The notes under the pieces: model-generated | The model's input: only the letters and a program-made list of their open reading frames with translations | Database searches by the model: none | Told to the model about the DNA's origin: nothing | Shown: one piece after another, positions 2,207 to 14,587 of the stretch | How the letters are laid out: every line of letters begins with the position of its first letter | Numbering within the stretch: position 1 is the first letter of the stretch | Position numbers and translations under genes: made by a program | Source: a bacterium | GTDB taxonomy: Bacteria; BMS3Abin14 | Direction of reading: 5' to 3' | Length of the DNA: 15,444 nucleotides | Assembly: GCA_020349685.1 (NCBI GenBank) | Contig: CP070698.1 | Coordinates: 476,040 to 491,483, forward strand

Positions 2207-2241
2207 TTGACAGTTCGAAAAGTGGGCTATATAGGTATACT
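2207..2241 (+). promoter_or_regulatory. Putative sigma70 promoter for the mdh leader or sRNA
   Basis: Perfect TTGACA at 2207-2212 with AT-rich sequence upstream. TATAGG at 2230-2235 lies at 17-nt spacing (imperfect -10); TATACT at 2236-2241 is nearby. Confidence 0.55.
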
Positions 2242-2259
2242 GTATATTGTATACCAATT
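2234..2259. promoter_or_regulatory. Palindromic operator GGTATAC-N8-GTATACC, GntR/FadR-like
   Basis: 2234-2240 and 2249-2255 are perfect inverted copies. Three GTATAY units occur at 7-nt period. It overlaps the predicted -10/+1 region. Confidence 0.55.
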
Positions 2260-2270
2260 ATATGCATGCA

Positions 2271-2379
2271 TTCAGTGTCAGGCCTCAGCCGACCTGGTTC
2301 AGCGACACCCCCCTCCGCTGAGTCAGACGGGAAGGCCGGTTTGAAGGGGGTTCGACGGCGACGTCGTCCCCCTTTTTTT
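2271..2379 (+). ncRNA. Candidate structured sRNA or leader (attenuator) RNA upstream of mdh
   Basis: Hairpin 2281-2337: an 11-bp core (2294-2304/2316-2326) with two G-U pairs, plus CCG/CGG and GGCCT/AGGCC extensions, closing the loop ACACCCCCCTC. It is followed by a terminator. I do not recognise a known family. Confidence 0.5.
2344..2379 (+). terminator. Intrinsic terminator in the aspS-mdh spacer
   Basis: AAGGGGG-tt-CGACG-(GCGA)-CGTCG-t-CCCCC followed by T7; the loop is a GNRA tetraloop. Confidence 0.8.
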
Positions 2380-2460
2380 GGATTTAAGGGCCCGGTGGCG
2401 GATTCTTACGGGGATGTTTAAGGGGCTTTTATTCAGGAATATCCACGCAGTCAAGGGATC

Positions 2461-2547
2461 GTTCGGCAATCAGCAATCAGTCATCGATAGCCTGTTCGGG
2501 AACACCCCGTACACTGGCTGATTGCAGATCACGGATCACTGCTGAAC
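2461..2547. repeat. Short inverted heptamer arrays upstream of mdh
   Basis: Left units CGGCAAT CAGCAAT CAGTCAT (2464-2484); right units GGCTGAT TGCAGAT CACGGAT CACTGCT (2516-2543). 2473-2483 pairs with 2515-2525 (11 bp, one G-U). Confidence 0.65.
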
Positions 2548-2581
2548 CGGGATAAACGGTTCAACAACAAAGGGGGCTTAA

Positions 2582-3520
<939 letters not shown>

Positions 3521-5223: not shown

Positions 5224-5368
5224 GCGTAGAGTCTAGTGTCTAGAGTCTAGTGTCTAGGGATGTGTGGAAAAGCCTATTACCAGACGCTGGAAATTGAATT
5301 ATGTGTGTTTAGAATCTGGGGTTTAGTGACATAAACTAGACGCCAGAACCAGACACCAGAAACTGCAC
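5224..5368. repeat. Inverted heptamer arrays (GTCTAGW family) filling the fumB-sucC spacer
   Basis: GCGTAGA GTCTAGT GTCTAGA GTCTAGT GTCTAGG (5224-5258); ACCAGAC GCTGGAA (5279-5292); GTTTAGA ATCTGGG GTTTAGT (5307-5327); ACTAGAC GCCAGA ACCAGAC ACCAGAA ACTGCAC (5335-5368). Confidence 0.8.
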
Positions 5369-9781: not shown

Positions 9782-10318
9782 ATGGCTCAAAGGTACGAAG
9801 TGCGACTCAGCGGCTCGGGAGGTCAGGGACTCGTTCTCGGAGGCGTCATCCTGGCTGAGGCCGTAGCGCTGTTTGAGGGCATCAACGCCGTCCAGACCCA
9901 GTCCTACGGCCCCGAGGCCAGGGGCGGCGCCAGCAAGTCGGAAGTGATCATCTCCGACGAGAGCATCGATTACCCTAAAGCGACCAAGATTGACCTGCTG
10001 CTCAGCCTGACCCAGGAGGCCTGCGACAAGTATTCGGTGGACCTGAAAGAGGGCGGCATCCTCATCGCCGACAAGAGGATGGTCACGAAACTGCCCGAGG
10101 GGAACTACAAGGTATACCATCTGCCCATTATCGATACCGCCAAGGAGAAGGCGGGGAAGGTCTTCGTCGCCAATATTGTTGCGTTGGGCGCCATCGCGGG
10201 CCTTCTCGACAGCGTTTCCATTGAGAACGTAGAAAAAGCGGTTCTGCAGAGGGTCCCGAAGGGAACGGAGAACCTCAACCGGAGAGCCCTCGCACTCGGT
10301 TATGAACTGGTCACCTGA
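9782..10318 (+). CDS. korC: 2-oxoglutarate:ferredoxin oxidoreductase gamma subunit
   Basis: GSGGQG, QSYGPEARGGAS, ANIVALGA and NRRAL motifs of the POR/KOR gamma family; SD GGGAGG. Confidence 0.93.
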   Translation: MAQRYEVRLSGSGGQGLVLGGVILAEAVALFEGINAVQTQSYGPEARGGASKSEVIISDESIDYPKATKIDLLLSLTQEACDKYSVDLKEGGILIADKRMVTKLPEGNYKVYHLPIIDTAKEKAGKVFVANIVALGAIAGLLDSVSIENVEKAVLQRVPKGTENLNRRALALGYELVT

Positions 10319-10412: not shown

Positions 10413-11078
10413 ATGTCATTGTTAACCAGCAGTGTTGGCAGAAAGGTGCTTATGGCCGTGAGCGGGTTTTTCCTGCTCATGTTCATCGTCGCTCACCTTG
10501 CCGGTAATTCCACCATCTTCATCGGATCGGACTGGCTCAACGCCTACGCGGAACATCTCCACGAACTGGGTCCTTTCGTATGGGTGTTCAGGGCGTTCAT
10601 GCTGGCCATGCTCCTGATCCACATCCTCTTCGGTGTCATCCTGACCCTTGAGAACTGGGGAGCCAATCCGGGGAAATACGCCGTCACGAAGAGGCTCAAG
10701 GTCACCTTTTCCAGCAGGACCATGATATGGACAGGGCTGCTCCTCCTCTCCTTTATTGTCTACCATCTGCTCCAGTTCACTTTCCGCGTCACACCGGAGA
10801 TCGTTCTGGCTGCAGACGAGGTGGGACGCTTCGATGTCTTTACCATGGTCGTCAGCAGCCTGCGGATCGTGGCCATCGCCGCGATCTATATCTTTGCGAT
10901 GGTTGTTCTGTTCCTGCACACCCGGCACGGCATTCAGAGTTTTCTTCAAACCCTCGGCCTCAGCAACGACAACCTTCAGCCGAAGTACGCTCTGGCCGGC
11001 AAGCTGATATCGGCGGTTTTCCTGGTGGGATTCGGGGCTATCCCGGTCCTTATTTTTACCGGCATTCTGGTCAAATAG
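10413..11078 (+). CDS. sdhC: Succinate dehydrogenase/fumarate reductase cytochrome b subunit (single anchor, b558-type, likely di-heme)
   Basis: About five hydrophobic segments; [11 protein letters not shown]; candidate His ligands in AHLAGN, IHI, YHLLQF and LHTRHG. Confidence 0.92.
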
Positions 11079-11089
11079 GGGGCACGACA

Positions 11090-13773: not shown

Positions 13774-13975
13774 TCCGTGAACAGTGATTTGTGATTCGTG
13801 ATTGGAGAAATCACGCATTTAACGTCTGTTAAACCTTGTTAGATTCTTAAACCCGTGGCATATTATCTATTCTGATTTCAGATTAGATATGTGTTGCTAC
13901 GGGTTTCAGATTTGGGGGACCACAAAGGTTTTTTCCCGAATTTCGAATCACGAGTTACGGTTCACGAATCACAGG
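13774..13975. repeat. Inverted heptamer arrays (TTCGTGA/TCACGAA family) enclosing a long hairpin
   Basis: Left: TCCGTGA ACAGTGA TTTGTGA TTCGTGA TTGGAGA (13774-13808). Right: TCCCGAA TTTCGAA TCACGAG TTACGGT TCACGAA TCACAGG (13934-13975). Central inverted repeat at 13849-13906. Confidence 0.8.
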
Positions 13976-13994
13976 GCTTAAGGGAGGTAAGCAG

Positions 13995-14489
13995 ATGAGC
14001 AAATCGGAGAAGAACCTGGCGGAGGCCTTTGCCGGTGAATCCCAGGCCAACAGAAAATATCTCGCTTTCGCGAAGAAAGCCGACGAGGAAGGGTTCCCTC
14101 AGGTGGCAAGGCTGTTTCGAGCCGCCGCCGCTGCCGAGACGGTCCATGCCCACGCCCACTTCAAGGTCCTGGGAGGGATCGGTGACACGGCTTCCAACCT
14201 CCAGGAGGCCATCGGCGGGGAGACCCACGAGTTCATGAACATGTATCCCCAGATGATCGAGGAGGCCAAAGCAGAGGGAAACAAGGAAGCCCAGATGAGC
14301 TTCATGTATGCCAACGCCGTCGAGAAGATCCATGCCGAGCTCTACAAAAAGGCCCTCGATGCCATGGAAGGGCTGGCCGAGACCGCCTATTTCGTCTGCG
14401 ACGTTTGCGGAAACACCGTGGAAGGGGAGGCTCCCGAAAGGTGCCCTGTCTGCGGGATGGACAAGAGTCACTTTATGAAGATCGACTGA
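13995..14489 (+). CDS. rbr: Rubrerythrin
   Basis: Di-iron ligands in AFAGESQA, ETVHA, GETHE and EKIHA; C-terminal rubredoxin-like CDVCG...CPVCG; SD GGGAGG. Confidence 0.95.
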   Translation: MSKSEKNLAEAFAGESQANRKYLAFAKKADEEGFPQVARLFRAAAAAETVHAHAHFKVLGGIGDTASNLQEAIGGETHEFMNMYPQMIEEAKAEGNKEAQMSFMYANAVEKIHAELYKKALDAMEGLAETAYFVCDVCGNTVEGEAPERCPVCGMDKSHFMKID

Positions 14490-14554
14490 GATAAGCACAA
14501 ACGAATAATTTATGAGCCCGGCGAAAAGCCGGGCTCTGTGCGTTTGTGCTTATC
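14490..14554. terminator. Compound hairpin between convergent genes, probable bidirectional terminator
   Basis: Outer perfect 14 bp GATAAGCACAAACG/CGTTTGTGCTTATC; inner 9 bp GAGCCCGGC-GAAAA-GCCGGGCTC. Confidence 0.75.
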
Positions 14555-14557
14555 AGT

Positions 14558-14587
14558 GTCTAGTTTCTAGACTCTAGATTCTAGAAA
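14558..14587. repeat. Heptamer array (TCTAG family) overlapping the J-domain gene stop
   Basis: GTCTAGT TTCTAGA CTCTAGA TTCTAGA; the last unit supplies the minus-strand TAG (14581-14583). Confidence 0.8.

Follow-up and report, generated by a model that had tools for sequence, protein, structure and literature searches.

In a 15.4-kb stretch of bacterial DNA (contig CP070698.1; the window, below, always means this whole stretch), we read positions 2207–2379, which lie inside the 590-nt spacer between aspS and mdh, with about even confidence as the promoter and promoter-proximal 5' leader of the mdh operon, a tricarboxylic acid (TCA)-cycle operon, with a premature terminator ahead of its first gene. 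The hairpin and terminator of this leader look like an ordinary attenuator rather than a new RNA family, and the RNA structure is largely lineage-specific. The promoter itself, judged from its sequence and from the Geobacter literature, is best read as a conserved mdh-operon promoter under HgtR-type control, with putative repressor binding at three phased units around GTATAC. The features on which the argument rests are the following.

2207–2212, plus strand: -35 hexamer TTGACA, invariant in the window and in three related loci (L001, L002 and L003), where it falls in an ungapped alignment block
2228–2235, plus strand: -10 region TATATAGG, read as TATATA with a 15-nt spacer or as TATAGG with a 17-nt spacer
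2235–2254, no strand assigned: operator of HgtR type, three 7-nt-phased units GTATACT GTATATT GTATAC with the core GTATAC-N-GTATAC
2241–2244, plus strand: predicted transcription start, placed by the usual distance past a -10
2281–2337, plus strand: stem-loop P1, 57 nt, with the 11-nt apical loop ACACCCCCCUC (2305–2315); predicted fold, -25.2 kcal/mol alone
2343–2379, plus strand: intrinsic terminator with outer helix GAAGGGGG/CCCCCUUU, inner helix CGACG/CGUCG, GCGA loop and U7
2380–2568, plus strand: rest of the mdh 5' leader, structured, with GCAATCA and GATCACG heptamer repeats, unalignable to the relatives
2569–2577, plus strand: mdh ribosome-binding site AAAGGGGGC, in which A(A/G)AGGGGG is kept in 4/4 genomes

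Relatives were collected by an Mdh search of genome contigs that returned at least 600 stretches, of which 413 were confirmed and 80 loci kept, the window's own genome not being among the matches listed; window and loci together make 81 sources and 634,781 bases. Among the matches listed, close relatives number three, L001, L002 and L003, whose Mdh is 88% identical; all others reach at most 70%. These three keep the order aspS-mdh-fumA-fumB-sucC-sucD with AspS 73–75% identical, and their genomes belong to uncultured lineages. When the whole spacer was compared with the 80 loci by blastn, a single shared piece emerged, window 2227–2262, in L001–L003, and the four-way alignment contains one ungapped block, namely CTTGACA, 15 variable nucleotides, TATATA and then (G/C)GTATAC (T/A)(G/A)TATA(C/T) (A/T)GTATAC. 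TATATA is invariant in all four genomes and the distance from TTGACA to (G/C)GTATAC is fixed at 21 nt, whereas the spacer is otherwise unalignable until the ribosome-binding site. The sequence features and the conservation of promoter and operator are direct observations. A consensus promoter scan did not call the 2207–2235 promoter because its -10 lacks the final T, and we take the promoter as real because it is conserved, not because of the scan; nor did that scan call any other promoter-like site between the terminator and mdh. The leader of the window is 327 nt long, within the 205–373 nt of the relatives, and the conserved sigma-70-type promoter is for this reason the most plausible mdh promoter. 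Since it is also the only recognisable mdh promoter, and one used by the relatives too, the hairpin and terminator are most economically placed inside the mdh leader.

The operator begins directly after the -10, 21 nt from TTGACA and upstream of mdh, in all four genomes. Its triple-unit pattern has 0.00 chance occurrences expected in the window. With at most one mismatch allowed, the core is found in 5 of the 81 sources (the window, L001, L002, L003 and L023), always just upstream of mdh; the window holds two overlapping cores with one mismatch each, and L001 and L002 hold exact cores. No further HgtR-type box with fewer than three mismatches was found in the window, for instance before sucC, korA or sdhC. 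The more distant L023, with an Mdh 66% identical and an A+T-rich genome, contains 17 consecutive bases of the published 18-mer, in a box that overlaps a TTGAAT-17-TAGTAT promoter (its -10) and lies 36 nt before mdh (L023 3855–3900).

Ueki and Lovley (2010, PMC2817479) describe HgtR as a 62-residue Geobacter repressor, predicted to be ribbon-helix-helix-like, that protects a dyad-symmetric site at +11 to +23 of Geobacter sulfurreducens gltA. The 18-mer used by these authors for genome searches is TTGTATACAGTATACTAA, and the core of the published site, GTATAC-A-GTATAC, is the motif found in the window. According to the same authors, similar sites precede acnB, icd (which shares an operon with mdh), oorD, frdC, atpG, nuoA and others; they overlap the transcription start, follow it or lie a little ahead of it, and mark genes that are repressed in Geobacter during growth on hydrogen (PMC2817479). 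A literature search with the exact 13-mer returned no papers. What appears to be new is the occurrence of an HgtR-type operator, in the form of a triple heptamer, at the mdh promoters of uncultured genomes whose gene arrangement is not the one described for Geobacter. The earlier note on this DNA was right to see a TTGACA promoter ahead of the RNA structures, and the promoter is conserved in L001–L003; what it missed is the HgtR-type operator in this promoter and its identity as the conserved mdh-operon promoter. With a conserved promoter ahead of the structures, the terminator does more than close the aspS mRNA, and the operator and conserved mdh promoter together favour a leader element acting in cis over a free-standing small RNA (sRNA) gene.

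Folding of the plus-strand RNA from 2240 to 2385 gives exactly the two hairpins (-53.1 kcal/mol, z -2.78, 2/200 shuffles as good). The upper stem of P1 comprises 11 bp with two tandem G-U pairs that are specific to the plus strand, and the minus strand folds worse (z -1.89, 7/200 shuffles as good), so that the plus-strand preference claimed in the earlier note is supported; the TTGACA, 57-nt hairpin, C-rich loop and GCGA-capped terminator with U7 that it listed are likewise all present where it had placed them. Read directly from the sequence, ACCCCCCTC stands at 2307–2315 in the P1 loop and GAAGGGGGT at 2343–2351. The terminator alone folds with -21.9 to -22.3 kcal/mol (z -2.85, 2/200 shuffles as good) and is present in both the minimum-free-energy (MFE) and the centroid folds of the whole leader. 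It has the G+C-rich stem-loop and following U tract of an intrinsic terminator, while the minus strand lacks a T run after the stem; its T7 occupies 2373–2379, 203 nt before the mdh ATG at 2582. When all T-runs on both strands were scanned, it was the best hairpin-plus-U-tract in the window (-22.0, U7), the next-best on the plus strand being intragenic at -14.8. A generic terminator scan was uninformative: it found 1 site in the region, where shuffled sequence gives 0.9, and 16 in the window, where it gives 14.1. As a separate observation, the P1 loop and 3' arm (2304–2324) are 76% complementary over 21 nt to codons 8–14 of korC (9804–9824), probably by chance because the P1 3' arm is base-paired in the fold.

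Taken together, these features suggest the following course of events. Transcription would start near 2242, in a start region covered by the three tandem GTATAC units, and would be open to an HgtR-type repressor, which in Geobacter is a small, predicted ribbon-helix-helix protein that shuts down TCA-cycle and energy genes on hydrogen. The nascent leader would first fold the 57-nt stem-loop with its exposed C-rich loop and then the strong intrinsic terminator, at which a share of transcripts would end at about 2376–2379, giving a leader RNA of about 135 nt; mdh would be present only on transcripts that read through, and attenuation would be stacked on repressor control. The attenuation is most likely either constitutive or controlled by a protein or some other factor. 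A metabolite riboswitch it is not, because the hairpin is simple, without a junction, and is not conserved. The product of about 135 nt might act in trans as well.

The genes on either side of the spacer are the following.

2–1990: open frame of aspS, in which the NCBIfam family match begins at residue 76
2582–3520, plus strand: mdh, first gene of the TCA cluster (NCBIfam TIGR01763, 484 bits)
Following mdh, plus strand: fumarate hydratase alpha and beta, sucCD, korABC and sdhCAB, in this order, by NCBIfam matches

An insulator that merely stops read-through from aspS, with no specific role for the TCA genes, would account for the facts that aspS has no canonical terminator of its own, that the consensus scan found no other terminator-like site between the aspS stop (1990) and mdh, and that the terminator would halt any plus-strand transcript. 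We nevertheless consider this very unlikely: 353 nt separate the terminator from the aspS stop, and it follows a conserved strong promoter whose transcripts it stops just as well, and the relatives do without it, L002 having a small hairpin directly after aspS and upstream of the promoter.

In contrast to the promoter, the RNA structures are not conserved in the relatives, apart from a partial likeness in L003, and this lack of conservation of the hairpin is itself an observation. A covariance model of 2278–2382 searched against the 81 sources recovered itself (134.1 bits) and one chance match (L071, 11.5 bits, E 7.3); with filters off, the best scores of the same model in the three syntenic leaders were 2.2, 5.6 and 2.2 bits. 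A lack of structural conservation in relatives, which the earlier note had named as counting against its proposal, is thus largely what is seen, with nothing in the 80 loci and a leader terminator in 0 of the 3 close relatives. The consensus scan found no terminator-like site in the L001, L002 and L003 spacers, and a T-run scan of their leaders returned nothing comparable to the terminator of the window. Over their first 100 nt, the leaders of L001 and L002 are no more stable than shuffled sequence (z -0.19 and 0.24, respectively). The best T-run candidates there, some 40 nt from the ATG in each case, reach -15.3 (U5) in L002 and -12.4 (U4) in L001, and just upstream of the mdh ribosome-binding site (L001 3905–3985, L002 3925–3985) these leaders carry other heptamer repeats, GTTCCAT/GTTCCAG and GAAACTT/TGAAAC, that fold into these modest hairpins with U4–U5.

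A partial counterpart is found in L003. The pattern GGGGG-N(10–30)-CCCCCTT occurs in only 1 of the 80 loci, on the plus strand of the L003 mdh leader at 1550–1579, where CCGGAGGGGG...UCCCCCUUUGG forms a hairpin of -19.9 kcal/mol (z -1.49, 18/200 shuffles as good). Its arms and spacing are the same as those of the window terminator; its loop is A/U-rich and it has no U tract. This resemblance suggests that the terminator evolved from an older, non-terminating leader hairpin, to which the window lineage would have added an inner stem rich in G+C, a longer U tract and, as a new element, the 57-nt stem-loop.

The same data could be explained by neutral, lineage-specific sequence, i.e. a fast-evolving leader that acquired the hairpin and the longer U tract recently, by accident or with an inserted palindrome, and in which a terminator leaky in vivo regulates nothing. 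This explanation draws on the absence of the element from the relatives, on four leaders that cannot be aligned apart from promoter and ribosome-binding site, and on the fast-evolving heptamer repeats that fill many intergenic regions here. We regard it as unlikely, given that few shuffles fold as stably (z -2.78 for the two hairpins, -2.85 for the terminator), that its G-U pairs are strand-specific, and that a leader terminator far stronger than any other in the window would hardly be without effect in a central metabolic operon. Moreover, there is no second copy in the window or in the loci and no plasmid or phage match, and a mobile or repeated element was rejected on the same findings. Two further candidates were discarded: a scan of 1900–2700 found no tRNA or tmRNA, and the 135-aa open reading frame (ORF) at 2014–2421 has no NCBIfam match, spans the promoter and is unalignable in the relatives.

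The earlier note had also proposed that the P1 loop and the 5' arm of the terminator could pair in an antiterminator or pseudoknot. In such a regulated switch the loop C-run (2307–2312) would pair with the terminator G-run (2346–2351) and block the terminator, either as a pseudoknot or as a nested antiterminator after opening of the stem-loop, with the setting made by a factor, by a ribosome on a 19-codon ORF or by a metabolite. The pairing does exist. The loop:arm duplex is worth -12.6 kcal/mol, close to the -13.7 of the terminator outer helix; only 65 of the 15,338 11-mers of the window (0.42%) pair with the arm equally well or better; and in nascent transcripts ending at 2352 or 2366 the nested C-run:G-run structure is the MFE structure. 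The 19-codon ORF, MHAFSVRPQPTWFSDTPLR (2262–2321), furthermore crosses the 5' arm and loop of P1. However, the pairing is no better than that of shuffled sequence: when the 101 nt upstream were dinucleotide-shuffled 500 times, 72.8% of the shuffles tied up the arm as well or better. For the full transcript, the antiterminator state comes to -42.9 and hairpin plus terminator to -52.3 kcal/mol, a gap of 9.4 kcal/mol in favour of the latter. The nested form would also require melting of the stem-loop, which folds earlier; the ATG of the ORF is preceded by no Shine-Dalgarno or purine-rich site, and the ORF has no regulatory codon run; and there is no multi-helix aptamer, Rfam match or conservation for a switch. 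A regulated switch is accordingly distinctly unlikely. By the same shuffles and the same energy gap, the leader lacks the antiterminator pairing above chance that marks a classical leader-peptide attenuator.

A different role for the leader RNA is suggested by analogy with the sRNAs RsaE/RoxS: the product of about 135 nt that the HgtR-box promoter would yield might itself be the regulator, its C-rich, anti-Shine-Dalgarno-like loop masking G-rich sites such as those of mdh and sdhA. The architecture would suit an sRNA, with a strong promoter, a stable stem-loop exposing an 11-nt loop and a strong terminator that folds independently; the loop contains one of only two C6 runs on the plus strand of the window; and, in keeping with the AGGGGG sites pointed out in the earlier note, mdh (2569–2577) and sdhA (11075–11083) have the unusual site AGGGGGC in common, most of the other 12 starts being of GGAGG type. 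The loop, on the other hand, shows no preference for these sites. Its duplex energies with the 14 initiation regions fall between the 12.5th and 87th percentiles of 1,324 background windows, without enrichment, and we rejected it as an anti-Shine-Dalgarno seed. The stem-loop is absent from the 80 loci, and since the same promoter drives mdh directly in the relatives, a stand-alone sRNA would need a second, unseen mdh promoter. Searches of known families also speak against this role. Rfam 15 gave no match at the gathering threshold on either strand of the whole window, in line with the candidate novel RNA of the earlier note; of 4227 families searched with 1950–2620 at E up to 10, five matched, RsaE/RoxS not among them, and the 6C RNA model (RF01066) reached 19.5 bits (E 4.6, 2293–2374) against a threshold of 47. 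We judge a trans-acting sRNA to be quite unlikely, although this role could coexist with cis attenuation.

The cis counterpart of this idea, masking of the mdh ribosome-binding site by the leader's own C-run, received its best indication from L003, whose leader C-run is predicted to pair with that site at p 0.99. The predicted partners there are the 3' arm of the leader hairpin, UCCCCCUUU, and the mdh ribosome-binding site, AAAGGGGGG (L003 1544–1582 and 1709–1725), and a second predicted pairing joins the GGCCA in the hairpin loop to the start-codon region, an anti-Shine-Dalgarno-like arrangement that is borderline against shuffles (0.07). The fraction of 60 shuffled leaders reaching the observed G-run pairing was 0.35 for the window, 0.15 for L001, 0.95 for L002 and 0.07 for L003, and conserved masking of the mdh site was dropped since the window, L001 and L002 are indistinguishable from shuffled leaders. 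A scheme that combines all of these elements can be imagined, in which a leader-derived RNA, made under HgtR-type control that responds to hydrogen, would cover the AGGGGGC sites of mdh and sdhA with its exposed CCCCCCUCC loop in trans and, on read-through transcripts, in cis, while the same C-run competes for the terminator G-run, thereby coupling attenuation to translational control of the TCA cycle. We hold this to be most improbable; if true, an uncultured lineage with ties to the Geobacter group would possess an RNA functionally analogous to RoxS/RsaE.

Several points weigh against the leader attenuator that we prefer. The start site, the efficiency of termination, the binding of a repressor and the regulation of read-through all enter it as predictions. 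The element is dispensable for the operon in the relatives, since none of the three has a leader terminator or the stem-loop, and it could be neutral; the relatives compared are, moreover, distant, at the identities given above for AspS and Mdh. The failure of the consensus scan to find a second promoter downstream carries little weight, because the same scan misses the conserved promoter. The search for literature, made at the level of listings and so weak evidence of absence, yielded nothing pertinent on mdh leader attenuators or on C-rich sRNAs of Geobacter.

If the terminator does attenuate, the organism stacks two controls on its TCA operon, an HgtR-type operator and a terminator without counterpart in relatives, and the leader would be a small example of terminators arising from older hairpins. 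The operator result is the firmer and more useful of the two, as it provides a sequence handle for predicting TCA-cycle regulation in these lineages. Neither opens a long-standing question.

The remainder of the window can be described briefly. The fumarate hydratase of the cluster is of the two-subunit class I, korA, korB and korC encode a 2-oxoglutarate:ferredoxin oxidoreductase, and a rubrerythrin gene lies beyond the TCA cluster (NCBIfam matches). The window scans found no canonical terminator after sdhB or rubrerythrin; a 27-nt inverted repeat (14477–14503 and 14541–14567, 78% complementary, 37 nt apart) lies between rubrerythrin and a convergent minus-strand ORF and could be a bidirectional terminator without U tracts. 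Tandem heptamer repeats occur in many intergenic regions (1–164, 2466–2480, 2520–2539, 5227–5257, 5338–5360, 13784–13803, 13934–13983 and 14559–14585), and 9 of the 11 rows reported by Tandem Repeats Finder have a period of 7 or 14. About 23 copies of CACCGAT/CACGAAT extend as far as the ribosome-binding site of aspS, the mdh leader contains GCAATCA and GATCACG units, and TCTAGAG/TCTAGTG units are found before sucC and after rubrerythrin. In Geobacter metallireducens, tandem heptanucleotide repeats of other sequence have been annotated as putative regulatory elements (PMC2700814).

Taken as a whole, the element combines two known kinds, a promoter under repressor control and, after it, a terminator in the leader, and its new points are modest. 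Compared with the HgtR operator of Geobacter, the site shares the dyad core GTATAC-N-GTATAC, the position at or just past the (here predicted) start of a sigma-70-type promoter, and the place ahead of TCA-cycle genes, which in Geobacter include the icd-mdh operon, oorD and frdC. It differs in having three phased units in the window and in L001–L003, whereas the published gltA 18-mer has two, and in preceding the gene order aspS-mdh-fum-suc-kor-sdh instead of an icd-mdh operon; the genomes here are of uncultured lineages, and their HgtR repressor is putative.

Premature intrinsic terminators in 5' leaders, including the classical 1:2/2:3/3:4 attenuators, are an established kind of control. With these attenuators the mdh leader has in common a strong terminator between promoter and first gene, an upstream hairpin whose 3' half can pair with the 5' arm of the terminator, and a short ORF that overlaps the first hairpin. 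In the mdh leader, however, the alternative pairing is no better than chance, the ORF has no recognisable ribosome-binding site and no run of regulatory codons, the operon is catabolic and energy-related rather than one of amino-acid biosynthesis, and the element is not conserved.

The RsaE/RoxS RNAs of Firmicutes and the 6C RNA of Actinobacteria resemble the leader RNA in exposing a C-run in an apical loop ahead of a terminator, in their genomic association with TCA-cycle genes and in having G-rich ribosome-binding sites as conceivable targets; the consensus of the Rfam 6C model shows CCCCCC in its first loop. Both families contain two or more C-rich motifs, the 6C RNA consisting of two stem-loops that each have a C-rich loop, whereas the leader RNA has a single C-rich loop, its second hairpin being capped by GCGA. 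It also belongs to another phylum, lies inside an mRNA leader and shows no detected target preference.

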